A DNA stretch of 64,000 bases. It comes from Acidimicrobiia bacterium UBA2766. Lineage in GTDB: Bacteria > Actinomycetota > Acidimicrobiia > UBA2766. The stretch is from assembly GCA_002352645.1 (NCBI GenBank), contig DEIU01000004.1, positions 234 through 64,233 of the forward strand. Direction: 5' to 3'. How positions within the stretch are numbered: position 1 is the stretch's first letter; every line of letters begins with the position of its first letter. Under the pieces are notes generated by a model that was given only the letters and a program-made list of their open reading frames with translations, was not told the DNA's origin and searched no databases. The position numbers were made by a program, and so were the translations under genes. Shown piece by piece: positions 11,743-60,779 of this stretch.

Positions 11743-11814
11743 GGCGGAGTAGCTCAGTGGCAGAGCAAACGGCTCATAATCGTTGTGTCGGCGGTTCGAA
11801 CCCGCCCTCCGCCA
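11743..11814 (+). tRNA. tRNA-Met (anticodon CAT; G1-C72 pair so elongator type, or possibly tRNA-Ile2/LAU)
   Basis: GGCGGAGTAGCTCAGTGGCAGAGCAAACGGCTCATAATCGTTGTGTCGGCGGTTCGAACCCGCCCTCCGCCA gives a cloverleaf with anticodon loop CT-CAT-AA. Confidence 0.8.
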
Positions 11815-12211: not shown

Positions 12212-13018
12212 TTGCGGAAAAGTTGGATTTCTCTGATGAAGGCGTCGCCGGGTTCTTTTTACCCTGGTCGTTGCTGGTCTATCCATAGTCCGCTCCATAG
12301 TCCGCTCGGTCATGGTTTTGCTGGGGGCATCCTTGGTGTCTGCGTTCTCTGGATTGTGGAAGAGCGACTTTGTGCGGAAGCGTCGAGCTGTTTTGCCGTT
12401 TTTCTGGTAACCGATGCCAGTGGTTGCCGTGTCGAATTTCTGAATACAACGGAGCCGTCCTTGAAGATAGATCCCTCTCTCGTCGAAAGGGCTGGGAAAG
12501 GCGATCCTGATGCGTTTGAGGAGATTGTTCGCCTCACCCATAGCGATATGTTTGGACTAGCGTACCGTCTTCTTGGTAATGAGGATGACGCTCGGGATGT
12601 CCTGCAAGACGCTTATTTAAGAGTGTATCGCTCTTTGAAAAAGTTCCGAGGGGACGCTCAGTTTTCAACTTGGATGTATCGGATCGTAGCGAACACGGCC
12701 TACACATATATGCGGAAACGGCAAAAACATCGTGCGGAACGTCTCGATGGTATTGAAGAGCCAGAATCTGAGTCGGTGCGGCCCGAGGACGCGTCAACGA
12801 ACACTGATTTGCGGGAACGTTTGAAGCAGTGTCTCCTGGCTCTTCCCCCTGATCAGCGGGTAGTGGTGGTGATGAAAGACATTTACGATCTGCCGCATGA
12901 GGATATTGCGAAAGAGCTCGGCATTTCTGTGACGGCCGCCAAAGTGCGGTTACACCGAGCGCGAAAGCGTTTGCGTGCAAGTCTGGAGTCGGAAGGAGCG
13001 ATAGATGCTGTTTCGTAG
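12212..13018 (+). CDS. ECF-type RNA polymerase sigma factor (sigma-70 regions 2 and 4)
   Basis: Region 2 (FEEIVRLTHSDMFGLAYRLLGNEDDARDVLQDAYLRVYRSLKKF...STWMYRIVAN) and region 4 (VVVMKDIYDLPHEDIAKELGISVTAAKVRLHRARKRL). The ORF maximum is given; the true start may be an internal TTG near 12461. Confidence 0.75.
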   Translation: MRKSWISLMKASPGSFYPGRCWSIHSPLHSPLGHGFAGGILGVCVLWIVEERLCAEASSCFAVFLVTDASGCRVEFLNTTEPSLKIDPSLVERAGKGDPDAFEEIVRLTHSDMFGLAYRLLGNEDDARDVLQDAYLRVYRSLKKFRGDAQFSTWMYRIVANTAYTYMRKRQKHRAERLDGIEEPESESVRPEDASTNTDLRERLKQCLLALPPDQRVVVVMKDIYDLPHEDIAKELGISVTAAKVRLHRARKRLRASLESEGAIDAVS

Positions 13019-13964: not shown

Positions 13965-14038
13965 AGGGGCGTAGCTCAATCTGGTAGAGCACTGGTCTCC
14001 AAAACCAGCGGTTGAGGGTTCAAATCCTTCCGCCCCTG
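13965..14038 (+). tRNA. tRNA-Trp (anticodon CCA)
   Basis: AGGGGCGTAGCTCAATCTGGTAGAGCACTGGTCTCCAAAACCAGCGGTTGAGGGTTCAAATCCTTCCGCCCCTG is near-identical in architecture to E. coli tRNA-Trp and sits at the conserved tRNA-Trp-secE-nusG position. Confidence 0.85.
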
Positions 14039-19664: not shown

Positions 19665-22600
19665 TTGGCCGTTACGGCGCGCCCCGGTATCCGTGACCGT
19701 GTCTCCTTCGCCACTATCGAAGAAGGCTTACCGCTACCAGATCTCCTCGCTGTTCAAAAGAATTCTTTTGAATGGTTTATGCACGAAGGCATTGCCGAGG
19801 CCCTTCATGAGATCTCTCCCATCGAAGATTATTCGGGAAACCTTATCCTTGAGTTCGTTGACCACGAGTTTGAGGGTCCGAAATATTCTATCGAAGAATG
19901 CCGCGAACGGGATATGCAGTATGGCTGCCCTTTGTTCGTGACTGCCCGGTTTGGGAACCGTGAAACTGGTGAGATCAAAGAACAGCGAGTGTTCATGGGG
20001 GAATTCCCCATGATGACTCCTGCTGGAACTTTCATCATCAATGGGACAGAAAAGGTTGTTGTCAGTCAATTAGTGCGTAGTCCCGGCATTTATTTTGACG
20101 TTTCGACTGATAAAACTTCTGAAAAACTTCTGCATGGTGCCAAGGTCATTCCTGCCCGTGGTGCTTGGCTGGAGTTTGATATTGACAAGCGTGGCACGGT
20201 CGGTGTCCGGATTGACCGGAAGCGACGTCAGATCGTGACAATTTTATTGCGAGCGCTTGATTTTGGTGAAGTTGACCTTTCCACTAATGAGAGTATTCTC
20301 GAGTATTTTGGGGGGAATGAAGGTATCAGCGCGAGCTTGGAGCGCGATCATACTACGACGCGTGAAGAAGCTCTTATTGATATTTACCGGAAGCTTCGGC
20401 CTGGTGAACCGCCTTCAGTTGAAGCATCTCGTGGCCTGCTTGACCAGCTTTTCTTTTCGTCAAAACGCTACGATCTCTCTCGTGTGGGCCGCTACAAGAT
20501 CAACCAGAAGTTTGCTCTTTCCCCTGAGGCACACAAAGTTCATATTCTGACTCCCGACGACATTCTCCGAACAGTAAAGTACCTTGTGGACTTGTCCGAG
20601 GGGAAAAACGGTTTCTCGATTGACGACATCGATCATTTTGGAAATCGGCGAGTGCGGGCAGTGGGTGAACTCATTGCCAATCAGGTTCGTATTGGGCTTA
20701 CCCGTATGGAACGGGTTGTGCGTGAACGGATGACTACACAGGAAGTGGAGGCTATTACCCCCACGACCTTGATCAATATCCGTCCTTTGACTGCCGCAAT
20801 CAAAGAGTTCTTTGGTACTTCGCAGCTGTGTCAGCTCTATGACCAGACAAATTCCTTGACAGGCCTCACGCATAAACGACGCCTTTCGGCCCTTGGTCCT
20901 GGCGGGTTGTCGCGTGAACGAGCTGGTTTCGATGTGCGAGACGTGCATCCTAGTCACTACGGGCGTATGTGTCCGATTGAGACGCCAGAAGGTCCGAACA
21001 TTGGGCTGATCGGCTCTCTTGCAACCTACGCGCGAATCAATGATTACGGTTTTGTCCAGACTCCCTACCGTAGGGTTTCTGAAGGGGTCGTCCTCGACGA
21101 AATTTGTTATCTCGACGCGCACGAAGAAGATCGGTACACTATCGCACAAGCAAATGCTCCTATCGATCATGATACGGGGCATTTCAAGAATGACCGAGTG
21201 CTTTGCCGGCAGAAGGGCGAACCCGCTTATATTTCTCCGTGGCAAGTCGACTACATGGATGTTTCCCCGCGGCAGATTGTGTCTGTTTCGGCCTCTTGCA
21301 TTCCCTTCTTGGAGCACGACGACGCAAACCGGGCTCTCATGGGGTCCAATATGCAACGTCAGGCAGTGCCTCTTCTCCAAGTAGAAGCGCCCTATATCGG
21401 GACAGGAATGGAAGCGAGAGCGGCGCTCGACTCTGGGGATCTCCTGCGGGCCGAAGAAGATGGGGTTGTTACCGAAGTAGCCGGCGACCGTGTCGTGATT
21501 GAAACCTCGGGGACTGGGGAACGTCACACTTACCGTCTCTCCAAATTCCGTCGCTCGAACCAGTCAACCTGCATCAGCCAGCGTCCAATTGTGGAAGCAG
21601 GCATGCGGATTACCAAGGGAGACGTCCTCACGGACGCTGCGAACACCTCCCAAGGTGAGCTGGCTTTGGGGAAGAATCTACTTGTGGGCTTCATGACTTT
21701 TGAGGGCCACACGTTCGAAGACGCCATTGTGGTCTCCGATCGCCTCGTGCGTGATGACGTGTTGACGTCAGTGCACATCGAGGAGTACGAAATCGAAGCG
21801 CGTGACACCAAACTGGGTGAAGAAGACATCACGCGTGACATCCCCAATGTGTCCGAAGAGGTTCTTCGAGACCTTGATGAACGCGGAATTATTCGTATTG
21901 GGGCTGAAATTGGCCCAGGCGACTATCTCGTTGGCAAGGTAACTCCAAAAGGAGAGACTGAACTCACGCCAGAAGAGCGTTTGCTGCGGGCCATATTTGG
22001 TGAAAAAGCACGCGAAGTGCGGGATACTTCTCTCAAGGTTCCGCATGGAGAGTGGGGAAAGGTCATTGACGTCCGAGTGTACAGCCGGGAAGACAATGCT
22101 GACCTGAACCCTGGCGTGAATAGGCTTGTGCGTGTGTATGTGGCACAGAAGCGCAAGATCTCCGTTGGTGACAAGCTTGCGGGACGACATGGGAACAAGG
22201 GCGTTATTGCCACAGTACTACCTGTGAATGACATGCCTTTCCTTGCCGATGGGACTCCCCTGGACATTCTTTTGTCCCCATTGGGTGTGCCGACTCGAAT
22301 GAACGTGGGGCAGGTTCTGGAAACCCTTTTGGGTTGGGCCGCCTACAACGGATGGGAAGCAGGTCCTTGCGCTTCCGACCCGGGAAACGGCAAGATCGCT
22401 TCTGTTCGCGAACCGGCATCCTATATTTCGACGCCTATTTTTGATGGCGCGCATTGGTCGGATAATGAGGCCCAGGACGCCGGCATGAATCCGGACACGG
22501 GAGTACCGCACCAGTCTATTCAGGAGATGCTGCGGACATCTCGCTCTGGGCATGGTCTTCGACTCATTGGTGAAGACGGGAAAGCTCAGCTCTATGACGG

Positions 22601-23093
22601 GCGCACGGGTGAGCCTTACGATCGTCCAATTGCTATTGGTTTCATGTACATCTTGAAACTTTTGCACCTGGTTGATGACAAGATTCACGCCCGTTCGACC
22701 GGGCCTTACTCCATGATTACCCAACAGCCTTTGGGTGGAAAAGCCCAGTTTGGGGGGCAACGCTTCGGAGAGATGGAAGTGTGGGCGCTCGAGGCCTATG
22801 GGGCTGCGTATTGCCTGCAGGAACTGCTCACTATTAAGTCAGACGACGTGTTTGGCCGTGTCAAGGTCTACGAAGCCGTTGTCAAAGGCGAAAATGTTCC
22901 TGATCCTGGTTTGCCGGAATCGTTCAAGGTGCTGGTGAAAGAAATGCAGTCGCTGTGTCTCAATGTTGAAGTGCTCTCGCAGGAAGGCACGGAGATCGAG
23001 ATGCACAACTTCGAGGAAGACGCTTTCCGTACTGCCGAAGAACTGGGCATCGACATCTCTCGTCCAGAGCGAAGCGAAGTCGAGGAGGCATGA
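19665..23093 (+). CDS. rpoB: DNA-directed RNA polymerase subunit beta
   Basis: 1142 aa with conserved blocks throughout. TTG start is forced by an in-frame TGA at 19656 and is preceded by AAAGGAG. Confidence 0.9.
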
Positions 23094-26000
23094 GCACGGT
23101 GGCAGCGATCCAGCAGTCTCGGAATACTGATCTTCGTTTTGATCAAGTGCGTATTGGTCTTGCCACACCCGATCAGATTCGGGCGTGGTCAAACGGTGAG
23201 GTGAAGAAGCCCGAGACAATTAACTACCGCACCCTGAAGCCTGAGATGGAAGGCTTGTTTTGCCAGCGTATTTTTGGTCCAGTGAAAGACTGGGAATGCG
23301 CCTGTGGCAAGTACAAAAGGGTTCGCTTCAAGGGGATCATCTGCGAGCGCTGCGGTGTTGAGGTCACGCGTAAAAGTGTACGCCGGGAACGTATGGGTCA
23401 TATCGAGCTAGCGGCTCCTGTGACTCACATTTGGTATCTCAAGGGTGTTCCAAGCCGTCTTGGCTATCTTCTCGACGTTTCTCCAAAGGATCTTGAACGC
23501 GTTATCTACTTTGCTTCCTACATTGTGACGCATGTGGACCAAGAGAACCGGACAGCAGCTCTGCCGGAACTCGAAGTGCGTATGCGTAATGAATCTGACG
23601 AAGTCTGGAAACTCTACGAAGAGCGTGAGCAAAATCGTATGCTCCGCGTTGAAGAGGAACTTGCCTCGTTGGAAGAGGCAGGAGAATCTGCCGAGGAGAT
23701 TGAGTCTCGCCGTAAGCAGTTCGACAAAGAGATGCGAAAAGATTCGCAGCGGGATCGCGAACGTGTTGAAGAAGAAACGCAGCATCTGAGCGAAGTTTTC
23801 ACGACCTTTAAGGGCCTGAAAGAGCGGCAGCTTATAGAGAACGAATTCGTTTGGCGGGATTTGCGTGAGCGCTACGAAGAGTATTTTTCTGGTGGCATGG
23901 GTGCCGAGGCGATCCGGGAATTGCTTGAAACCATTGACCTAGATCAAACAGAAAGTGCGTTGCGCGAAGAAATTATCGTTAGTAAAGGACAAAAACGCGC
24001 ACGCGCTACCAAGCGTCTCAAAGTAGTGGCGGCTTTCAATCAGGGCGAAAACCGTCCTATCGGCATGATCCTGGAGTGTGTACCTGTTATCCCTCCGGAC
24101 CTTCGTCCAATGGTGCAGCTTGATGGTGGACGTTTTGCGACGTCCGACCTGAACGACCTGTACCGGAGAGTGATTAACCGGAATAACCGCCTGAAACGAC
24201 TGCTCGATTTGGGTGCTCCGGAGATCATTGTTAATAATGAAAAGCGCATGTTGCAGGAGGCCGTAGACGCTTTGCTCGATAATGGGCGTCGTGGTCGACC
24301 TGTCACGGGACCAGGGAACCGTCCTCTAAAGTCTATTTCGGACATGTTGAAAGGCAAGCAAGGCCGTTTTCGTCAAAACTTGCTTGGAAAGCGTGTCGAC
24401 TATTCTGGTCGATCGGTGATCGTCTGTGGTCCTCGTTTGCGTTTGCATCAGTGCGGGCTTCCAAAGCAGATGGCGTTGGAACTCTTCAAGCCTTTCGTTA
24501 TGAAACGTTTGGTGCAACAGGACTTGGCAGCCAACATCAAGTCTGCCAAACGCATGGTGGAGCGTCCGCGCCCTCAAGTCTGGGACATCCTCGAAGAGGT
24601 GATCAGCGAGCATCCCGTACTTTTGAACCGGGCACCTACTCTGCACCGTTTGGGTATCCAAGCTTTCGAGCCAGTGCTTGTGGAAGGGAAGGCCATCCAG
24701 ATTCACCCGTTGGTGTGCGCGGCGTTTAACGCGGACTTCGACGGGGACCAAATGGCTGTGCACGTCCCCTTGTCAATTGAGGCACAGGCTGAGGCACGAA
24801 TTCTCATGCTCTCGGCAAATAACCTGTTGTCTCCTGCTCATGGCCGCCCTCTTGTGACTCCGACGCAAGACATGGTGATCGGGGCGTTCTATCTCACAGC
24901 AGATCCTCCGAATGAACCTCCAGCAGAGATTCCAGTCTTTACTTCTCCAGTCCAAGTGCGTTTTGCCTACGACTCTTTTCTTGGGGACGGCAAGCGTGTT
25001 CTGAACTTGCATGACCGAGTCAGAGTGCGTGGTCTGAAGCCATCTCTACAAGATGAAATAATAGAGACCACAGTCGGACGCGTTATTTTCAACTCGACTT
25101 TTCCGGACTCGTATGGCTACGTCAACGAAGTCATTAAGAAAAAGGACTTGGGCCGTTTGGTCATAGAGTTGTACGAGCAGTGTACGCACACAGAAATTGT
25201 GAGGACGCTCGACAACCTGAAAGAGCTCGGGTTCCATTTCGCCACCGTGTCGGGTCTGACGTTTTCGATTGATGACGTGAAAGTGCCTGATGAAAAGTCC
25301 GATATTCTTGATGTCTACGAGAAGCGGGCCGAACGAGAGGAAAAAAACTACCGGGCAGGTGCGATCACGGAGCAGGAGCGTCGTCAGCGTTTGATTGAAA
25401 TCTGGCAAGAGGCTTCTGACAAAGTGAAAGATGCAATGGTCTCGAGGATGGGGAAAGATCCGTTTAACCCTATCCAGATGATGACCGACTCTGGTGCTCG
25501 TGGCCAGGTTATCCAGGTACGTCAGATTGGTGCGATGAGGGGTTTGGTAGCAAACCCAAAGGGCGAGATTATGCCTCGTCCTATCAAATCCAATTACCGT
25601 GAAGGACTCTCGGTTCTCGAGTACTTTATTTCCACGCACGGTGCACGTAAAGGACTCGCTGACACCGCGCTACGAACGGCAGACTCTGGTTATTTGACCC
25701 GTCGTCTTGTCGACGTTGCCCAAGAAGTCATCATTCGCGATGATGATTGTGGCACGACCCGAGGCATTGCGGTCCAGGTCAGCGAAGAAAAGCGGTCTTT
25801 GGAGAGCCAGCTGAAGGGCCGCTATCTCATGGAAGACCTTGTGGATGGGACCACAGGGGAAATCCTTCTCCACACAGGTGACCCAATCAAACGTACTCTC
25901 CTTCTTTCTATCGCGAAGGCAAAAATCGAATCTCTAAAAGTGCGTTCGGTTCTCTACTGCCAGTTGCGAGATGGGGTGTGCTCGAAGTGCTACGGCTTTG

Positions 26001-26983
26001 CTCTTGACACAGGAAAAAAGGTAGAGACGGGAGAGGCAGTCGGAACGATTGCGGCACAGTCTATTGGAGAGCCTGGAACCCAGCTCACTATGCGGACTTT
26101 CCACACTGGGGGTATCGCAGCAGGCGGTGACATCACACAGGGTTTGCCTCGTGTGCAAGAGCTGTTTGAAGCACGGACCCCGAAAGGGAAGGCAGAGATT
26201 TCCCACTCTTCTGGCCAGGTACGGATCCAACGTGACGAAGAGACGATGGACCGGACCATTATCGTTGAAGACGAGGATGGAGAAGAAGAGACACACGAGG
26301 TCGGTCGGCGAGTACGGATCCTTGTGGAAGACGGGGACAAAGTTTCTCCCGGCGATCCTCTGACCTTCGGTCCAATTGACCCGAAAGAACTGCTCGAGGT
26401 GAAGTCGAGTCGGGCTGTGCAAGAATATCTGGTAAATGAAGTGCAGCGTGTGTACTCCAGCCAGGGTGTTGACATTCACGATAAGCATATTGAGCTGATC
26501 GTGCGTCAGATGATGCGCAAGGTTGTGGTACAAGAGTCGGAAGAATCTGACTTTTTGCCTGGCGAGCGTGTGGACCAGCGTGTTTTCCAAGAGGCAAACA
26601 GGGTTTTGGTACAGGAGGGCAAAACCCCTGCTCAAGCTCGGCAAGAGCTGATGGGAATCACGAAGGCATCACTTGCGACAGACTCCTGGCTATCTGCTGC
26701 TTCCTTCCAAGAGACAACGCGGGTTTTGACAGAGGCTGCAATTGAGGGCAAGAGCGACAGCCTGAGAGGGTTGAAAGAGAATGTCATTATTGGCCGTCTC
26801 GTGCCGGCGGGAACGGGAGTTCGTTCTTATCGAGAGGTTGACCCGGACTTCCCTGAAGGTGCCGAAGTCATTAGCGTGCACCCCTTCTTCCAGACAGGTG
26901 GAGAAGAACAAATGTCGGCTGAGGAAGCTGCTGACTTCCTTCGTAAGATCGGAACTGGGTCTGTAAATACGGACGCTTCTTAA
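23090..26983 (+). CDS. rpoC: DNA-directed RNA polymerase subunit beta'
   Basis: Zn-binding [23 protein letters not shown], the NADFDGD catalytic motif and the C-terminal block. ATGA overlap with rpoB. Confidence 0.9.
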
Positions 26984-51443: not shown

Positions 51444-52724
51444 TCAAAAGTTATAAGGTCTGGTTTTGTTTTCAGGGATCGTGACATGAGGGAGAATGTC
51501 TTTTCCTCTGAGCCCAAGAATCAGATGGAGGCTGTCTTCAGGGTCTTCGAGGCTCAAGCTAGTGATCTCTTTAATGCGATTGAGCCGGTAACGTATGGTT
51601 TGTGGGTGTGTGTGGAGAATTTTGGCGGTTCTTGTTGGGCTTTGTCCTAATAAAAAGTACGTTTCCAGTGTGCGAACGAGGTCAGTACTTCGAGTTTTAT
51701 CGTATTCGATAAGAGGAGCGATTGTGTGTTCGACTAGCTCAGCCAGGAGAGCGGGTTCTTTGCGAAGTATGCGGTCGAGGACAGCTTCTTCATAATCCAC
51801 GATAGTGGTTTTTGATGAACGTGCGATTGCGAGGGCTTCGATTGCTTCTAAATAGCCTTGTCGTACTCCGGTGAAACCGAGACGAGGTCTCGTGATTCCG
51901 ACACAAAGATCTACTTCCATAGTGAGACGAGTGATCGATTTGACGAGATCTTCGTAATCGTCAGGAGTGGGTGAGGGACGCAAGATTACGATTTCCCCGC
52001 GGATTGTCGTGACAAAGCTGCGGGGAAATCGCTGTGCAACATCTTCTTCTATGGTGCTGTGCAGATGGGAACACTCGGATGTTCCTACGACTGCGACACT
52101 GTGCTCAATAGCCGGTTCCCAACCGATGTTTTCTGCCCGTTCCAGGGCTGTTTCACCGGCGAGTTCCCCGTAGAGAAGGTCGAGCAGGAAAGAACGCCGT
52201 TCCTCTTCGTTTTCCCGGAGCATCCGGGCTTGTTCTCTGGTGTAGTCGTGCGCAGCAAGGTTCGAGATGACGTCGACCCAGTACATGATTGCTTCGGCGA
52301 CCCACAGTGCAGCTTCTCGGTCGTGGTTGTTGGCTTTTGCGACCTTGTGCAGCGTGGCACCGGCTGATCGTGCCCAGATGCGGAAGGCTTGGAGGAGGTC
52401 TCCGAGAGGGATGCCTTGTGCTGCTCGGTCTGCTCCCACATTGGCGAGGGAGTGGGCGACGGCCTCGTTTGGGGGGTGACCGCTACGGAGCGTCTCGATA
52501 AAAGAGGCGTATACATAAGAGGCAGCGCGTCGTGTGTCTGCGGCAACTTCGTCACCTCGGACGCGATAAATCGGGACTTCGGTAAGGATGGCTTGCAGCG
52601 TGGCTTCGACCATGTCATTGATATGCTTATCGAGGTCGTCGGCTATGTCTTTCACCCCTGGGGGAGGAGGACGCTGCGGCACTGCTCTGGAAGTTGCTGT
52701 TGCTGTTGTAAGATTGTCGGGCAT
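51444..52724 (-). CDS. PucR/CdaR-family transcriptional regulator
   Basis: C-terminal PucR-type HTH (LETYFLLGQSPTRTAKILHTHPQTIRYRLNRIKEITSL). Confidence 0.65.
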   Translation of the reverse strand: MPDNLTTATATSRAVPQRPPPPGVKDIADDLDKHINDMVEATLQAILTEVPIYRVRGDEVAADTRRAASYVYASFIETLRSGHPPNEAVAHSLANVGADRAAQGIPLGDLLQAFRIWARSAGATLHKVAKANNHDREAALWVAEAIMYWVDVISNLAAHDYTREQARMLRENEEERRSFLLDLLYGELAGETALERAENIGWEPAIEHSVAVVGTSECSHLHSTIEEDVAQRFPRSFVTTIRGEIVILRPSPTPDDYEDLVKSITRLTMEVDLCVGITRPRLGFTGVRQGYLEAIEALAIARSSKTTIVDYEEAVLDRILRKEPALLAELVEHTIAPLIEYDKTRSTDLVRTLETYFLLGQSPTRTAKILHTHPQTIRYRLNRIKEITSLSLEDPEDSLHLILGLRGKDILPHVTIPENKTRPYNF

Positions 52725-52978
52725 GAAAGAGTCTCCAACTTTGCTGTCGTGAGACGGTGCACAGTAGTTTTGGTCTGTACTGGGTATGCGCTCCTGCGGT
52801 ATTCCACTACACTTTGGCCTTGCGAAGTGTCGAGTTGGAAACTCGGGCCGTCTTTTCGGTTGCAGTCTGAGCGCACGACAACAGGGCGGGGCGCTTGATC
52901 TTTGTGTCTAGTGGTTTTTTGCCTTCTGCTCGCTGGCTGTCGCAATAGTTTTTGTCCTTCGATTGTTTTGGAGCATTG

Positions 52979-53419
52979 GTGCGCACGTATACGCCAAAGC
53001 CTAATGAGGTGGCGCGCTCATGGCATGTGATTGATGCTGAAGGCAGGGTGCTTGGTCGTCTTGCTTCTGAGATCGCATCCCTTTTGCGCGGAAAGCACAA
53101 GCCTCAGTTCAGCTATCATGTTGACCTGGGAGACCATGTCATTGTTGTGAATGCCGACAAACTAGTGGTGTCGGCAGACAAGGCACGTCAGAAAATACAT
53201 TATCGTCATACAGGGTATCCCGGCGGGTTGAAAGAGACGCGGCTGGGTGATGATCTGATCTCTCGACCACAAGAAGTGCTTCGACGTTCTGTGAAAGGGA
53301 TGCTTCCGAAGAACCGTCTTGCCCGTAAGAGCCTGAAACGTTTGCGGGTCTATGCCGGCCCCGATCATCCGCATCAAGCACAGCTTAAGTCGATCTCGAA
53401 CGAGCGTGAGGAGTCCTGA
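52979..53419 (+). CDS. rplM: 50S ribosomal protein L13
   Basis: GTG start inside ORF 52952..53419; VRTYTPKPNEVARSWHVIDAEGRVLGRLASEIASLLRGKHKP. Confidence 0.85.
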   Translation: MRTYTPKPNEVARSWHVIDAEGRVLGRLASEIASLLRGKHKPQFSYHVDLGDHVIVVNADKLVVSADKARQKIHYRHTGYPGGLKETRLGDDLISRPQEVLRRSVKGMLPKNRLARKSLKRLRVYAGPDHPHQAQLKSISNEREES

Positions 53420-53422
53420 GGA

Positions 53423-53815
53423 ATGCCTGCTCATTTGTGTCAAACCACGGGGCGGCGGAAGTCTGCTGTCGCTCGTGTCCGCCTGCGTGAAGGAACAGGC
53501 GTCATCAGCGTGAATGGTCGCTCGTTTGAAGACTATTTCTCTTCTGTTTCGCACCGTAGGATTGTGATATCGCCTTTTGATGCGGTTGATGCTTCTGCCC
53601 GCTATGACGTGGATGCCAGGTTGTCAGGAGGCGGTGTCTCCGGTCAGGTTGGCGCGCTTGTGCTTGGGATCGCGCGTGGTCTTGTTGAATTGGATGAAGA
53701 ACTTCGTCCTGTTCTGAAGTCCCAGGGATTTTTAACACGGGATGCTCGTCGTAAGGAACGCAAAAAGTACGGTCTGAAAAAGGCCCGGAAAGCCCCGCAG
53801 TACTCAAAAAGGTGA
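53423..53815 (+). CDS. rpsI: 30S ribosomal protein S9
   Basis: [27 protein letters not shown]...[17 protein letters not shown]. Confidence 0.9.
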
Positions 53816-55224
53816 GGCTTCGTTTTGGTACCGACGGTATTCGTGGGGTAGCCAACACCGAGTTGTCTGCCAGTTTGTCGCTTGCTGTCGGTGAAATAGT
53901 TGGGCGGGTTCTCGTGGAAAGTTCTGCGAAAGACCCGCTCTTTCTTTTGACGAAACCTGCTTCTGCAGGGATTTTGCCGCTTGTTCTCATCGGAGAAGAC
54001 ACTCGTCGTTCTTCTCCGATGTTGCGTGCTGCGTTGTCGGCGGGACTGGCCGCGAATGGCGTGGATGTCGTGTCTCTCGGCGTTGTGCCTACGGGTGCTG
54101 TTGCCATTCTCGTGCGTGAGATGCACGCGATCGGTGGGGCAATGGTCTCTGCCTCGCACAATCCTTCTCGGGATAATGGCCTGAAATTTTTTGGCATGAG
54201 CGGGCAAAAACTCACAGACCCGCAACAAGCCCGTATTGAAGCAGAACTCGACAAAAGGCTGGACGGGCAGCCGGAGACAAGACCGGACACACCTGTTGTT
54301 GGCTCGCGCTTTCGGAATAGCGAGATCGGGATGGTGAGTGTCGATGACGGTCTGGTAGACAAGTATTTGCACGCGCTCCTGCAGAGTGTTGAGACTCCGC
54401 TATCTGGCCTCCGCGTGGTGATCGATGCCGCAAACGGTTCTGCTTTTCGTCTTGGGGCGCGGGTTTTACGCGAAGCTGGGGCAGAGGTTGAAACCTTGTT
54501 TGACGTGCCGGATGGCGGCAATATCAACGCCTCTTGCGGGGCGACAGCACCGCACTCTCTTGCGCGTGTTGTGGTCGATCGTGGGGCTGATATAGGTCTG
54601 GCGTTTGACGGGGATGCAGATCGCCTTATCGCTGTTGATGAACAGGGCGCTGTGGTCGATGGGGACGGTATCCTGGCAGTTCTCGCGCTGGCGTTGCATG
54701 AAAAGGGTACTTTGGGCGGCGATGCCATTGTCGCCACTGTCATGAGTAATGTCGGTCTTTCTCTGGCGCTGCGGTCATATGGGATTGGTGTGCGCGAGTG
54801 TGCGGTTGGTGACCGTAATGTTTTGCTTTCTCTGGAGAAAGAGGGGCTGTACCTTGGTGGTGAGCAGTCTGGGCACGTGATTTTTCGTCATTTGGCACCG
54901 ACGGGGTGTGGTTTGCTCACGGCCTTGCAATTGTGTCAAAGGGTAGTGATGGCGGGTGTTCCTCTGTCGGAGCTGTCAGGGGTGATGACGAAATATCCGC
55001 AGATATTGCGGAATGTCGATTTGGAAGACCGCGCGCGTTGTGACGAGGCAAAAGATTTTTGGCGTGAGGTAGAATCGGTACGGTCTGATCTGGGAGAGGT
55101 TGGGCGTCTTGTTGTCCGCCCTTCTGGGACCGAGCCAAAGCTCCGCATTATGGCGCAAGCACCTACTGAAGAGGCAGCAGAGGCGGCAGTCGCTCGCATT
55201 GAAGCTGCACTTGCTTATTTGTGA
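53812..55224 (+). CDS. glmM: Phosphoglucosamine mutase
   Basis: [14 protein letters not shown]...[16 protein letters not shown] (active-site Ser loop); GTG overlaps the rpsI stop. Confidence 0.85.
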
Positions 55225-55540
55225 GAAGTCTTTTTCCGCTGTTCGGGTGGGGTGTAGTCTGCTTTTTCCCTGTTTTGTCTGCTGTTTGCGGGGTCTTCTG
55301 CTCTGGGTCCTCTTTTGTCCCCTTTTTCAGCATGAAAAGAGGGTATTCCCGTGAAATCGCCCCGTGGAAAGGCGGGTTTGCTTTTTTCCCGGTATTGTGG
55401 TGAGGGAACAGGATCGTAAGGTGTGGGGTGCAATCGGTGTTTTTGTACTACTGTACGGACTCCTGCATGCCGATCATGGAAGAGACGAGAAGAGAGCAGG
55501 GTGTGCGTACGTTGTTGTCGTACGTTGATGTTGTTGAAAA

Positions 55541-55735
55541 AAGCGCCTGACCTCTTTTAGAGGTGACGAGGAAGAAGGGGATTGAAAGACAGTTCTGACT
55601 GGCTTTCATATCGAAGATTCGGCGGGTGCCCCTCCGGCTTCCATGGGTCGTGACGGTTTCCGGTAAAACCGGGGAGTGATTCCCGAGACAAAACGGTGCC
55701 GATCGTGGTTTGTTGATCATGGTTTGATCATGATT
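55541..55735 (+). ncRNA. glmS ribozyme (GlcN6P-responsive self-cleaving riboswitch) in glmS 5' leader
   Basis: AGCGCC...GUGACGAGGA...AUCGAAGAUUCGGCGGGUGCCCCUCCGGCU...GGGGAGUGAUUCCC closely parallels the Bacillus glmS ribozyme core (..GACGGAGGA..AUCGAAUUUUCGGCGGAUGCCUCCCGGCU..GGGGGUGACUCCU..). It lies about 170 nt upstream of glmS. Confidence 0.65.
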
Positions 55736-55899: not shown

Positions 55900-57741
55900 A
55901 TGTGCGGCATTGTTGGTTTTGTGGGCGAGAAGCCCGCTCTGCCTGTCCTGCTTGATGGTCTGTCGCGTCTGGAGTACCGAGGGTACGATTCCGCAGGAGT
56001 TACCCTGCAGGGAAATGCTGGACTCCGGACAGTTCGAACAGTTGGAAAAATTGCTGACCTTGTGGGAAGTCCTGACTTGGCAGGCCTGCATGGGACAACA
56101 GGTCTTGGTCACACGCGTTGGGCAACGCACGGAAAGCCAAGTGAGGAGAATGCCCACCCGCACAGTGATGGCAAAGAATCGCTTGTCATTGTGCACAACG
56201 GGATCATTGAGAATCATCATGAGCTCCGGGCTGATCTGATTGGTCAAGGGGTATCTTTTCGTAGCCAGACCGATTCGGAAGTGATTGCTCATCTTTTGGG
56301 ATGTCGTCAGATAAAGCACCCAGAAGAAGATCTTGTTGAGGCTGTGCGGGCGGTGATGCGCCAACTTGACGGAACGTTTGCTTTGGGGGTGATGTCAGCC
56401 CGTTTTCCTGGTGTGCTGGTCGGTGTCCGTCGTGTGGCTCCACTTATTGTGGGTATGGCGCAAGACTGCGCGCTTTTGGCCTCCGATATTCCTGCCATCT
56501 TGGCGGAGACTCGCGAGGTGGTTGTTCTGGAAGACGACCAGATTGTGGAGCTGACGACACAGGGAATTCGTCTTGTCGATGCTGAGGGCGAAGAACTGCC
56601 TGTGCGCACGAAGACGATTGCGTGGGATTTGGCTGCGGCAGAACGTGGAGGCTATGAGCATTTCATGCTGAAAGAGATCCACGAGCAACCGCAGGCTATT
56701 GCAGATACTTTGCGCGGTCGGATTGATCTTGCTTCAGGAAGACTTTTGCTCGACGAGCTGCGTATTGGCGATGAGGGGATACGCCAGATTGACAAGGTGT
56801 TCGTGGTGGGTTGTGGGACAAGTTACCACGCTGGGCTTGTGGCAAAGTATGCCATTGAACACTGGGCCAGGCTCCCCGTGGAGATTGATATTGCGTCGGA
56901 GTTCCGGTATCGAGATCCAGTTCTTGACGCGCAAACTCTTGTTGTGGGAGTGAGCCAGTCTGGCGAGACAATCGACACGATTGCTGCTTTGCGGTATGCC
57001 AAGGATTTACAGGCGAAGACGGTGTCAGTGACGAATGTCGTGGATTCCACGATGTCGCGCGAAACAGACATGGTGATTTATACCCATGCTGGTCCAGAAA
57101 TTGGCGTGGCGGCAACAAAAACCTTTACCGCGCAGATTGCTGCGCTTGAGCTTTTTGCTTTGTATCTTGCCCAGTCGCTGCAGCGGCTTTACCCAGCGGA
57201 AGTGCGTGATCTTCTGCATCAAATGCAACATGTGCCTTCTCAGATCTCTGAGGTTTTTTCGCTTGATGAGGCGATTCTGGAGGAGGCGAAGACCTGGGCT
57301 GATGTTTCTGATGCCTTCTTCCTTGGAAGGGGATCTTCGTATCCCACGGCGCTGGAGGGTGCGCTCAAAATGAAGGAGATCTCCTATTTACACGCTGAAG
57401 GTTATGCCTCGGGAGAATTGAAACATGGCCCACTGGCCTTGATTGAAGAGGATGTTCCTGTGGTCGCAGTCGCCACAGATTCGCGTGTCAGCGCGAAGAC
57501 CCTCTCAAATGTGGCGGAAGTTGAGGCTCGTGGTGGCCGTATCATCATGATTCGGAATGTGGGCAGTGATGATTTTGGTCTTTCCCCGGACACGCTCTTT
57601 GAAGTGCCTGCGACGCATGAGCTGTTCGCGCCCATGATTGACAGCGTTGTTTTACAGCTTCTTTCTTATCATGTCGCGACTTTGCGAGGATGCAATGTTG
57701 ACAAGCCTCGCAATCTTGCGAAAACCGTAACTGTGGAATAA
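55900..57741 (+). CDS. glmS: Glutamine--fructose-6-phosphate aminotransferase
   Basis: MCGIVGFVGEKPA... (N-terminal Cys nucleophile), two SIS domains, C-terminal ...VDKPRNLAKTVTVE. Confidence 0.9.
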   Translation: MCGIVGFVGEKPALPVLLDGLSRLEYRGYDSAGVTLQGNAGLRTVRTVGKIADLVGSPDLAGLHGTTGLGHTRWATHGKPSEENAHPHSDGKESLVIVHNGIIENHHELRADLIGQGVSFRSQTDSEVIAHLLGCRQIKHPEEDLVEAVRAVMRQLDGTFALGVMSARFPGVLVGVRRVAPLIVGMAQDCALLASDIPAILAETREVVVLEDDQIVELTTQGIRLVDAEGEELPVRTKTIAWDLAAAERGGYEHFMLKEIHEQPQAIADTLRGRIDLASGRLLLDELRIGDEGIRQIDKVFVVGCGTSYHAGLVAKYAIEHWARLPVEIDIASEFRYRDPVLDAQTLVVGVSQSGETIDTIAALRYAKDLQAKTVSVTNVVDSTMSRETDMVIYTHAGPEIGVAATKTFTAQIAALELFALYLAQSLQRLYPAEVRDLLHQMQHVPSQISEVFSLDEAILEEAKTWADVSDAFFLGRGSSYPTALEGALKMKEISYLHAEGYASGELKHGPLALIEEDVPVVAVATDSRVSAKTLSNVAEVEARGGRIIMIRNVGSDDFGLSPDTLFEVPATHELFAPMIDSVVLQLLSYHVATLRGCNVDKPRNLAKTVTVE

Positions 57742-57981: not shown

Positions 57982-59625
57982 ATGAATCTTGCCTCTTCTG
58001 TGTTCGAGCGAAATCCGCGTCAACATACGGCAGTATTGCGTCCGGCCCGTATGGCCGCAGCCGATCGTGCTGCAATCGCGGCAGGCACACCGGGTCGCGA
58101 ACTGATGGAGCGAGCGGGTGGTGCCTGCACTCGGGTTGCTGTGCGCCAGGCAGGGGGAATTGGGGGCGCACGTTTTCTTGTGCTTGCCGGTCCTGGGAAT
58201 AACGGTGGGGACGGATTTGTCGTTGCCCGTCGTTTACGTGAGCAACGTGGCGCGGTGCGTTGTCTTTTTGTGGGTGATCCTCATGAGATACGAGGAGATG
58301 CTGCACTGCATGCTGATCTGATGCGTAGATCTGGTGTGCCTTTGTCGGTCGTTGACGGACAGAGCGCGCTTCCACCTGCTGATGTTGTGGTTGATGCTCT
58401 TTTCGGGACAGGGTTTCGTGGGGCGTTGACGGGTGCTGCTGCGGCTTTGGTCGATCGGCTTTCCCTGCTTCCCGAGAGTGTTCGAGTCGTGTCGGTTGAT
58501 ATGCCTTCTGGAGTGAATGGAAGGACGGGAGAGGTTTTGGGCCCTGTTGTGCGTGCCAATTGCACAGTGGCAGTACAAGCGTTGAAGCCTGGCCTTTTGC
58601 TGGGGGAAGGGGCAGAGCGGGCTGGAGAAATACATTGTGTGGATATTGGGATTCCTCTCCCGGAGCGTCCGGATGCCTGGTGTGCTGATCTGTCTACTGC
58701 GGTGAGTGCTGTACCGTTGCGTGGGGTTTCTGCTCATAAATGGCAGGCAGCTGTCTTGGTGATCGGGGGGTCTACGGGCATGACAGGTGCCCCGCAACTT
58801 GCTGCTCGTGCTGCTTTTCGTGCGGGCGCCGGCCTTGTGACCCTGGCTACCGCGCGTGTGGTGTCTGAAATCGTGCAGATGGGCACACCAGAAGTGATGA
58901 CTGTTGCTTTGCCGGACGATGGGTCTGGGATAGGGCCAGGTGCTGACCAGTTTTTACGGGAACGTATACCGTTTGCCAGATATGGTGCGCTTGCTCTCGG
59001 AATGGGTTTAGGTCGCGCGGGCCATCTTCGAGCATTCGTGCAGTCGGTCTTGGCTGCTTCTCCCAATCCTGTTGTGTTGGACGCTGATGGTCTGAACGCG
59101 TTGAGACCGGATGATCTTGTTGCGGCGCGTGCTCCTCTTGTGCTTACTCCGCACGTAGGAGAGTTGGCTCGACTTGGGTGCGAGATTGGCGATGCTGCGG
59201 ATCGTCTTGAAAAGGTACAGGCCGCGGCGCAGGCATGGGGGTCGGTCCTGCTTGCGAAGGGACCGGTCACGATTGTGGCAGCCCCGGGAGCTGTGCCAGT
59301 GTTTTGTACGTCTGGTACTTCTGACTTGGGAACTGCAGGGTCGGGAGATGTGTTGAGTGGGGTTATTGCAGCGTATATTGCTCGTGGGGCTTCTTTGCAG
59401 GATGCTGCGGTTGCCGGTGCATGCGTGCATGGTCGGGCAGGTTGGCGTGCGGCGACTCGGGGGGAGAGCCGGACGATGGAGCATTCTGTAGGGGTTGGGA
59501 TACGACCTGGTTTTTCTCCTCTTTCCCGTGCTGTTTTTCGCCCTGTTGCCCGATGGATTGTGGCAGGGGATGTGATTGAGGAACTTGGGAGCGCGGAAAT
59601 GCAATTGCGCGAGTGCACGGGGTGA
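57982..59625 (+). CDS. nnr: Bifunctional NAD(P)H-hydrate epimerase / ADP-dependent NAD(P)H-hydrate dehydratase (YjeF_N + YjeF_C)
   Basis: LAGPGNNGGDGFVVARRL (YjeF_N) and GSGDVLSGVIAAYIARG (carbohydrate-kinase-like C domain). Confidence 0.75.
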   Translation: MNLASSVFERNPRQHTAVLRPARMAAADRAAIAAGTPGRELMERAGGACTRVAVRQAGGIGGARFLVLAGPGNNGGDGFVVARRLREQRGAVRCLFVGDPHEIRGDAALHADLMRRSGVPLSVVDGQSALPPADVVVDALFGTGFRGALTGAAAALVDRLSLLPESVRVVSVDMPSGVNGRTGEVLGPVVRANCTVAVQALKPGLLLGEGAERAGEIHCVDIGIPLPERPDAWCADLSTAVSAVPLRGVSAHKWQAAVLVIGGSTGMTGAPQLAARAAFRAGAGLVTLATARVVSEIVQMGTPEVMTVALPDDGSGIGPGADQFLRERIPFARYGALALGMGLGRAGHLRAFVQSVLAASPNPVVLDADGLNALRPDDLVAARAPLVLTPHVGELARLGCEIGDAADRLEKVQAAAQAWGSVLLAKGPVTIVAAPGAVPVFCTSGTSDLGTAGSGDVLSGVIAAYIARGASLQDAAVAGACVHGRAGWRAATRGESRTMEHSVGVGIRPGFSPLSRAVFRPVARWIVAGDVIEELGSAEMQLRECTG

Positions 59626-59651
59626 ATGGTGTGGATGTGTCTGGTTCTTTG

Positions 59652-60779
59652 ATGGGTACGAGGCGTTTTCGTCCGTCGTGGTTGACTATTGACGATGGCG
59701 CGTTGAAACGCAATATCACAAAGTTGTGTTCTCTCGCTGGTGATGCGCGCTATTGCGCCATTGTGAAGGCGAATGCCTATGGGCATGGAGCACTTCGTGT
59801 GGCAGAGGCTGCAGTGGAGTGTGGTGCGGGCATGCTGGGAGTTGCCACTCTGGAAGAAGCTGTCGAGTTGCGGGAGGGGGGGATTGATGCGCCAATTTTA
59901 TTGTTATCTGAGCCTTCGGAGGAGGTTTTGGCGGATCCTTATTCTCCGCTGCTTTCCTATGGGATAGAAACAACGGTGTATTCAGAAGTGGGGATTGTGG
60001 CGCTGGATGGGGCTGCGTGTGCGCATGGCACTGTCGCTCCTGTCCACCTCAAGGTGAATACAGGGATGAATCGAGTGGGTGTGCAGCCTGAGTATGTGTT
60101 GGCGTTGGCGAAGCGGATTGTCGTGGGGGAAGGGCTGCGTTTGGCGGGGGTTTGTTCTCATTTCGCAATGGCGGATACACCAGATGATTCCTTTACTTTG
60201 TTGCAGGCTGATCGTTTTGATGCTGCTTTGGATTTGTTGGCAAGCGAGGGAATCTCGACGGGCGTCCGGCATCTTGCCAATTCTGCGGGCTTGCTTTCTG
60301 ATCCAGTGAGATATCGATACGATATGGTGCGATGTGGGATAGCCCAGTATGGTTTCTCGCCAAGTGCGGCATTAGCCGGGCGTCTTTGTTTGGAGCCTGT
60401 GCTTTCTTTGCGGTCGCGGCTTGCTTTTGTGCGCCGGTTGCGCGCGGGGGAGGGGATCTCCTATGGCCACCAACATGTCGTTGACCGTTCTACTTGGATT
60501 GGGACAGTGCCACTTGGGTATGCGGACGGTGTGCTCCGCTCTTTGTCGGGGCGAGTGAATGTGCTGGTGAGAGGAGTGCCGAGGCCGATTGTGGGGAATA
60601 TCACGATGGATCAATTCATGGTGGATTTGGGGGAAGCAGGGGGAGATGTTGGTGATGAGGTTGTTTTGTTGGGAAGGCAAGGGGAGGTGGAGATTACGGC
60701 GCAGGACTGGGCGCTTGCGCTAGATACGATTTCGTATGAAATCCTTTGTGGGATAGGGGAGCGTGTGCCGCGCGAGTAG
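59652..60779 (+). CDS. alr: Alanine racemase
   Basis: PLP-lysine motif AIVKANAYGHG; start at Met14 of ORF 59613..60779. Confidence 0.8.
   Translation: MGTRRFRPSWLTIDDGALKRNITKLCSLAGDARYCAIVKANAYGHGALRVAEAAVECGAGMLGVATLEEAVELREGGIDAPILLLSEPSEEVLADPYSPLLSYGIETTVYSEVGIVALDGAACAHGTVAPVHLKVNTGMNRVGVQPEYVLALAKRIVVGEGLRLAGVCSHFAMADTPDDSFTLLQADRFDAALDLLASEGISTGVRHLANSAGLLSDPVRYRYDMVRCGIAQYGFSPSAALAGRLCLEPVLSLRSRLAFVRRLRAGEGISYGHQHVVDRSTWIGTVPLGYADGVLRSLSGRVNVLVRGVPRPIVGNITMDQFMVDLGEAGGDVGDEVVLLGRQGEVEITAQDWALALDTISYEILCGIGERVPRE

Follow-up and report, generated by a model that had tools for sequence, protein, structure and literature searches.

The window, by which we mean the whole 64-kb stretch of DNA analyzed, contains a glmS locus in the order rplM-rpsI-glmM-ribozyme-glmS-nnr-alr. 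The ribozyme lies in the glmM-glmS intergenic region, which is 675 nt long. The product of the ORF at 55900-57741 begins with MCGIVG and carries GATase_6/7 and two SIS domains, identifying it as GlmS, the product of the regulated gene. The genes and signals of the locus, together with the tRNA genes of the window, are listed below.

11743-11814, plus strand: tRNA gene (Rfam, 66.3 bits)
13965-14038, plus strand: tRNA gene (Rfam, 70.3 bits)
51444-52724, minus strand: PucR-type regulator gene
52952-53419, plus strand: rplM
53423-53815, plus strand: rpsI
53812-55224, plus strand: glmM
55361-55388, plus strand: putative intrinsic terminator of glmM
55505-55525, plus strand: 7-bp hairpin GCGTACG...CGTACGT with a U-rich tail, 17 nt upstream of the cleavage site
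55531-55711, plus strand: match to the glmS ribozyme family, RF00234
55712-55895, plus strand: structured spacer, with 189 nt from the ribozyme to the glmS start codon
55889-55894, plus strand: Shine-Dalgarno sequence GAGGAG, read from the sequence 5 nt 5' of the glmS ATG
55900-57741, plus strand: glmS, glutamine--fructose-6-phosphate aminotransferase, 613 aa
57982-59625, plus strand: nnr, bifunctional NAD(P)H-hydrate repair enzyme gene
59613-60779, plus strand: alr

The window is presumably the conserved rpoB (19665-23093), rpoC (23090-26983), fusA, tuf, ribosomal-protein and rpoA region, the names being assigned from ORF sizes and order. Nearly all large ORFs lie on the plus strand. GC content is about 52%, and GC skew is positive in every 2-kb bin of positions 1-64000 (0.05-0.26), strongly and uniformly so. 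Downstream of glmM, the stretch 55361-55388 is likely an intrinsic terminator judging by its form, CCCGTGGAAAGGCGGG followed by a T-rich run (a terminator-like site at 55361-55376 plus its tail). The presence of this terminator-like site 3' of glmM implies that a separate glmS promoter probably lies within about 55390-55530. A search of this interval for a sigma-70-like promoter found none, and the absence of such a site is unsurprising in an actinobacterium. The hairpin at 55505-55525 could be a 5'-terminal protective stem of the glmS leader that is lost upon ribozyme cleavage, or a second terminator-like site.

The original prediction placed a glmS ribozyme in the glmS leader, and this was borne out. 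With cmscan and Rfam 15, the whole 64-kb window gave an RF00234 match at 55531-55711 on the strand of glmS, with 61.2 bits and an E-value of 1.1e-11. The gathering score of the family is 37, and the match spans model positions 1-167 of 167. The same match was recovered when the intergenic region was scanned alone. RF00234 and the two tRNAs were the only families above the Rfam threshold in the window, and a search of the intergenic region for other RNA families at a permissive threshold gave no more than chance-level matches. The four core segments that had been named are present in order on the plus strand, namely AGCGCC at 55542-55547, GTGACGAGGA at 55563-55572, ATCGAAGATTCGGCGGGTGCCCCTCCGGCT at 55610-55639 and GGGGAGTGATTCCC at 55672-55685, and the pseudoknotted P1/P2/P2.1/P2.2 core can be folded from them. 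The range assigned at first, 55541-55735, takes in the whole element and overshoots its 3' end by about 25 nt; the 3' limit is given by the 3' strand of the proximal P3.1, which ends at 55708.

An identical GlmS protein was found on 18 metagenome contigs. Seven of these contigs were fetched and showed 99.6-100% identity to the window over 6.2-6.8 kb. Among these strain variants, the 181-nt element carried no substitutions and the rest of the intergenic region had five variable sites, a difference that is not statistically significant (P of about 0.2 for five sites). The next GlmS relatives were 61-66% identical, and the named ones were "Acidimicrobiia bacterium" MAGs. With RpoB, a handful of relatives stood at 78-81%, followed by a sharp fall to 69% or below. 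By both proteins, the organism belongs to a small, uncultured clade of Acidimicrobiia. The ribozyme was present in five of the seven distinct clade relatives (L090/L091, L092/L093, L094/L095 and L097), at the same position upstream of glmS. It was absent from L088/L089 and L096, in which glmS starts 76 or 12 nt after the upstream gene. A regular-expression search of 80 species-representative GlmS loci returned one true ribozyme, and 20 of those loci were then scanned with Rfam. None of the 14 other Actinomycetota/Acidimicrobiales glmS loci scanned with Rfam contained the ribozyme, and Firmicute loci have it. Since the ribozyme is confined to certain Gram-positive and related lineages, it had also been proposed as a phylogenetic marker. 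The host does fall in a Gram-positive phylum (Actinomycetota, Acidimicrobiia-like), but the patchy presence among relatives makes the ribozyme a poor marker, and RpoB and GlmS identify the organism far better.

The ribozyme-bearing clade relatives share with the window a syntenic glmM ... glmS-nnr-alr arrangement and near-identical sequences of the core, P3, P3.1 and P4.1. Unlike the window, they have an A after GGCGG, lack the extra hairpin described below, and have spacers of 47-76 nt instead of 189 nt before glmS. In these relatives (L090-L095 and L097), glmM and the ribozyme are also separated by a gene of about 400 aa whose Pfam match, to ABHD18, is weak or faint. In the window, a 316-nt non-coding stretch takes the place of this gene, and a tblastn search of the window found no remnant of it.

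The core pairing scheme was adopted from two mutational studies (PMC11602151, PMC7125110). In B. subtilis numbering, P2.1 consists of C38-G55 and G39-C54, P2.2 pairs C2-C5 with G63-G66, and P2 includes G48-C72 (PMC11602151). In T. tengcongensis core numbering, P2.1 pairs 28-30 with 43-45, and P2 is flanked by the linkers 39-42 and 57-60 (PMC7125110). Applied to the window, this scheme gives the following elements.

55542-55547, plus strand: cleavage-site motif AGCGCC, with cleavage between A55542 and G55543 assigned by homology
55544-55547 with 55621-55624, plus strand: P2.2, CGCC with GGCG
55550-55564, plus strand: P1, a minimal 6-bp hairpin ACCUCU-UUU-AGAGGU (55550-55 with 55559-64)
55565-55572, plus strand: J1/2, GACGAGGA
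C55567-G55568-A55569 with U55611-C55612-G55613, plus strand: P2.1
G55571, plus strand: equivalent of the catalytic G (B. subtilis G42, T. tengcongensis G40)
55574, 55575 and 55577-80 with 55629-34, plus strand: P2, GAAGGGG (55574-55580) with CCCCUC, A55576 bulged
55583-55608, plus strand: extra hairpin UGAAAGaCAGU-UCUG-ACUGgCUUUCA, 26 nt, 10 bp plus one A.G mismatch
A55614-U55619, plus strand: pair closing the loop AGAU
G55625, plus strand: equivalent of B. subtilis G67, which contacts A-1
G55626, plus strand: equivalent of B. subtilis A68, normally A
55635-55650, plus strand: P3, CGGCU-UCCAUG-GGUCG (55635-39 with 55646-50)
55641-45 with 55704-08, plus strand: P3.1, CCAUG with CGUGG, the 3' strand homologous to the CGUGG of relatives
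55654-55701, plus strand: P4/P4.1 peripheral domain
55654-56 with 55699-701 and 55660-62 with 55694-96, plus strand: P4
A55665-67 and A55690-92, plus strand: IL4 adenines
55670-75 with 55680-85, plus strand: P4.1, capped by the GNRA tetraloop GUGA at 55676-79

The window, five clade relatives and three Firmicute ribozymes were aligned with MAFFT, giving nine sequences. All canonical helices of the glmS ribozyme could be drawn for the window sequence, and its catalytic and ligand-pocket nucleotides were intact. MAFFT mis-registered P2, so the pair count was made on the alignment without it, and P2 and P3.1 were judged sequence by sequence; the per-sequence helix listing leaves out the L092 row, for which the anchor expression mis-fired. 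With P2 excluded, 83% of cells were paired in the canonical fold, versus 37-47% when the partners were slid by 1-3 columns. On the same alignment, 19 pairs showed compensatory changes, and none of 500 shuffles matched the observed values.

The individual helices agreed with this result. P1 was 100% paired, with compensatory changes in four of five pairs, and P4.1 was 95.8% paired with covariation in all six. P2.2 was 96.9% paired, three of its pairs being invariant and one compensatory (C-G to U-A in L056). P2.1 was 100% paired and offers no evidence of covariation, because its pairs never vary; the invariance of P2.1 and of most of P2.2 is as expected for active-site helices. The GACGAGG junction at 55565-55571 was likewise invariant in all nine sequences. 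Judged per sequence, P2 covaries, reading AGGGG/CCCCU in the window and AGCGGGU/ACCCGCU, GGAGGGU/ACCCUCC and UUGGGAA/UUCCCAA elsewhere. P3 was 82.5% paired. The column count for P3.1 was poor (35.9%) and is unreliable because MAFFT misaligned the 3' tails; by the per-sequence listing and by eye, P3.1 has 5 bp at the homologous site, including one G.U. A second candidate for the 3' strand, CAUGG at 55718-55722, would be a perfect complement. Compared with the consensus, P4 is weak, consisting of two 3-bp segments (58% and 92% paired) around a 3x2 internal loop, and cmscan flagged three non-canonical pairs. Minimum free energy (MFE) folding of the isolated element gave z -0.08 versus shuffles, with the P2 region likewise near 0. 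Such values are expected for a pseudoknotted RNA and are uninformative either way.

The most conspicuous departure from the consensus is the hairpin at 55583-55608. With its flanks it amounts to 28 inserted nucleotides that none of the sampled relatives has, visible as a gap in the alignment and confined to the lineage of the window. The hairpin was predicted in the folds of both the full element and the P2 region, and it is identical in the seven strain-level contigs. The cmscan alignment places 31 extra nucleotides inside the "P2a" loop; we rejected this placement and put the insertion in the P2-to-P2.1 linker instead. The block AUCGA-N4-UCGGCGG aligns column for column with all relatives, and because it is invariant, the insertion must sit in the 3-4-nt linker that runs from the P2 5' strand to the P2.1 3' strand. 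The window was searched for further copies of the inserted hairpin or of the spacer, as a test for a mobile-repeat origin, and none were found. In a k-seq study of the B. subtilis ribozyme, every substitution at U50, U51 and A52 gave yields of 0.78-0.89 (PMC11602151). Andreasson et al. found P2 and its adjacent linkers prone to harmless rearrangement, with the 39-42 linker rearrangement-tolerant (PMC7125110). We read the 55583-55608 hairpin as an expansion, specific to this lineage, of a short linker that tolerates mutation. Most likely it extends outward from the active site, with a neutral or mildly stabilizing effect.

Insertions at this linker were also sought in metagenomes with a pattern that required 16 or more additional nucleotides between GACGAGG and UCGA. 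The scan yielded more than 119 stretches, and 80 of them were fetched. Roughly half of those 80 proved to be fortuitous matches in GC-rich coding DNA and were set aside, leaving about 40 real glmS ribozymes with linker insertions. These formed two classes. Eight loci, seven of them distinct (L112, L119, L128, L130, L135/L163, L136 and L139), carried a single hairpin; six of the seven reached the Rfam gathering score, and the contig of the seventh, L136, ends just past P2. As in the window, these ribozymes have one hairpin between the P2 5' strand and the UCGA of P2.1, flanked on either side by 1-5 unpaired nucleotides. In contrast to the window, their hairpin sequences and lengths are unrelated to it, and their P1 and P4 backgrounds differ. 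The unrelated hairpin sequences indicate that the linker is a recurrent, independently used site of expansion, and these hairpins are not homologues of the window hairpin.

A glmS start codon lies downstream of nearly all insertion-bearing ribozymes assessed. In the single-hairpin class, the loci assessed were L112, L119, L128, L130 and L139, and all but L119 are followed by this start codon. L161 has no obvious glmS start downstream. At L119, the single-hairpin ribozyme (12542-12718, minus strand, 57.1 bits) is followed by an ORF resembling a HAD-family hydrolase (MRFDGLIFDLDGTLWD...) in place of glmS. Ribozymes of the glmS class are rarely associated with genes other than glmS.

About 32 of the roughly 40 real ribozymes belonged to the second class, a widespread one in environmental DNA, in which two hairpins are arranged in the stereotyped form GGUU-stem-YUAAC-stem-GGAAAA-UCGA. 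Four of the five variants of this class that were scanned fell below the Rfam gathering score. A (T)TTTCC run complementary to the conserved GGAAAA follows a short P3 in this class (L098-L177; for example L122 5012-5107, L106, L099, L168 and L177). In some subgroups (for example L122, L101, L149, L168 and L177) the distance from the core to the glmS ATG is only about 50 nt, which leaves no room for a P4 domain. One metagenome contig with a two-hairpin glmS ribozyme also carries a glycine riboswitch (L107 689-781, minus strand, 39.9 bits). McCown, Roth and Breaker reportedly described, in 2011, Deinococcus-Thermus glmS ribozyme variants with additional stems in the catalytic core. The two-hairpin metagenome class may correspond to, or extend, that variant. 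The window resembles the reported Deinococcus-Thermus variants in having an extra stem in the core of a natural glmS ribozyme, but it has one hairpin and not two and keeps the standard P3/P4 domain.

Compared with the canonical glmS ribozymes of RF00234 (B. subtilis, B. anthracis and T. tengcongensis types), the element shares the cleavage-site motif, the double-pseudoknot core, identical core nucleotides, the P3/P3.1/P4/P4.1 domain, the IL4 adenines, the GNRA tetraloop and the location in the glmS 5' UTR. It differs in its 26-nt linker hairpin, in a P1 of only 6 bp with a 3-nt loop, in the G at the A68 position, in the 3x2 internal loop of P4 and in the 189-nt structured spacer. Its host is an Acidimicrobiia-like actinobacterium, whereas the canonical hosts are Firmicutes. 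The extra core hairpin and the long structured spacer aside, the element is an ordinary representative of a well-known class of RNA.

These deviations could be read as signs of decay, in which GlcN6P-dependent cleavage has been abolished or badly impaired by the 28-nt insertion in the core, the change from A to G at 55626 and the weak P4, and glmS is no longer regulated in this way. The RF00234 score of the window, 61.2 bits, is the lowest among the clade ribozymes, the five distinct relatives scoring 68.6-76.4 bits. Loss of the ribozyme does occur in this lineage, as L088/L089 and L096 are entirely without it. At the position of G55626, each of the other eight aligned ribozymes has an A, as does every one of the roughly 40 real metagenome ribozymes, so that the G of the window is unique among them. 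The lower score is probably due to the minimal P1, the interrupted P4 and the insertion. In B. subtilis, A68G gave a product yield of 0.82, versus 0.27-0.29 for A68C and A68U (k-seq; PMC11602151). Since A68G is active and A68C/U are low, a purine appears to be enough at this position. The linker that received the insertion tolerates every substitution in the same data, and insertions there have commonly arisen independently in ribozymes still linked to glmS. Moreover, the catalytic and ligand-pocket nucleotides all remain intact, Watson-Crick or G.U pairing is kept in the helices, and the strain variants carry none of their substitutions in the element. On this evidence we regard a decaying relic as very unlikely.

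The spacer between the ribozyme and glmS is the second unusual feature. Its MFE was -73 kcal/mol, versus -56.5 +/- 4.1 kcal/mol in shuffles (z -4.04, 0/200). The predicted fold contains hairpins at 55712-38, 55740-80 and 55790-805, the last being a perfect 16-nt palindrome (CTCTGAAATTTCAGAG), and a further long-range domain that extends to the ribosome-binding site. No sequence similarity between the spacer and the relatives was found, nor was there an Rfam match in the spacer at a permissive threshold.

This structure raises the question of additional control. We consider it highly improbable that the linker hairpin and the 189-nt spacer together form an added regulatory module, for instance by sequestering the P2.1 strand in an alternative fold or by changing, as a structured block, what becomes of the cleaved mRNA. 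If this were true, the ribozyme would integrate a second signal. A composite regulator, in which an active ribozyme is joined by a second control layer from the hairpin at 55583-55608 and/or the spacer, could act through an alternative fold in which the hairpin is extended into the P2.1 3' strand and P2, through a protein-binding site, through a block to 5'-3' exonuclease or through sequestration of the ribosome-binding site. The excess of structure in the spacer and its confinement to the window lineage would fit such a regulator. A strain SNP, 55715 G>A, changes a G.U to an A-U pair in the spacer hairpin at 55712-38, and a fold of a sub-fragment pairs G55580-A55581-U55582 with A55610-U55611-C55612, in competition with P2 and P2.1. 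This competing extension is, however, absent from the fold of the full element, the spacer holds no Rfam motif, and no homologues of the spacer or hairpin were found in which covariation could be followed. Linker hairpins also vary widely in sequence across lineages, the pattern to be expected of neutral expansion. A composite regulator thus seems to us barely credible.

We are highly confident that the RNA encoded at 55531-55711 is a functional glmS ribozyme-riboswitch, situated in the glmS 5' UTR of an uncultured, Acidimicrobiia-like actinobacterium. The analysis shows that it belongs to this family and documents its secondary structure, its covariation, its gene context and the conservation of its catalytic nucleotides. 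In the mechanism we propose for this ribozyme, the leader would be transcribed from a separate promoter downstream of the glmM terminator. It would fold into the doubly pseudoknotted P1/P2/P2.1/P2.2 core, braced by the P3/P3.1/P4/P4.1 domain. Its dependence on the ligand, the precise site of cleavage and the route of decay are inferred from the glmS ribozyme family. Accumulated glucosamine-6-phosphate, the product of the GlmS pathway, would bind a preformed pocket and serve as catalytic cofactor when the RNA is cut between A55542 and G55543. Cleavage would produce a 2',3'-cyclic phosphate end and leave a glmS-bearing downstream fragment with a 5'-OH. In B. subtilis, RNase J1 degrades the 5'-OH glmS fragment (Collins et al. 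2007, reviewed in PMC3997798). By analogy, an RNase J-type 5'-3' exoribonuclease may degrade the fragment here, leading to less GlmS and hence negative feedback.

Herein, our results leave the understanding of the glmS ribozyme class unchanged. They provide a correct annotation of a metabolite-sensing ribozyme in a little-known clade of uncultured Acidimicrobiia-like organisms, some lineages of which have the ribozyme while others have lost it. For engineering, the linker offers a permissive site at which to graft aptamers or tags. Together with the metagenome variants, the element of the window reveals the P2-to-P2.1 linker of the glmS core as a natural hot spot for hairpin insertions. Variation at this linker helps to refine the RF00234 covariance model, as most of the two-hairpin variants scanned currently fall below the Rfam threshold.
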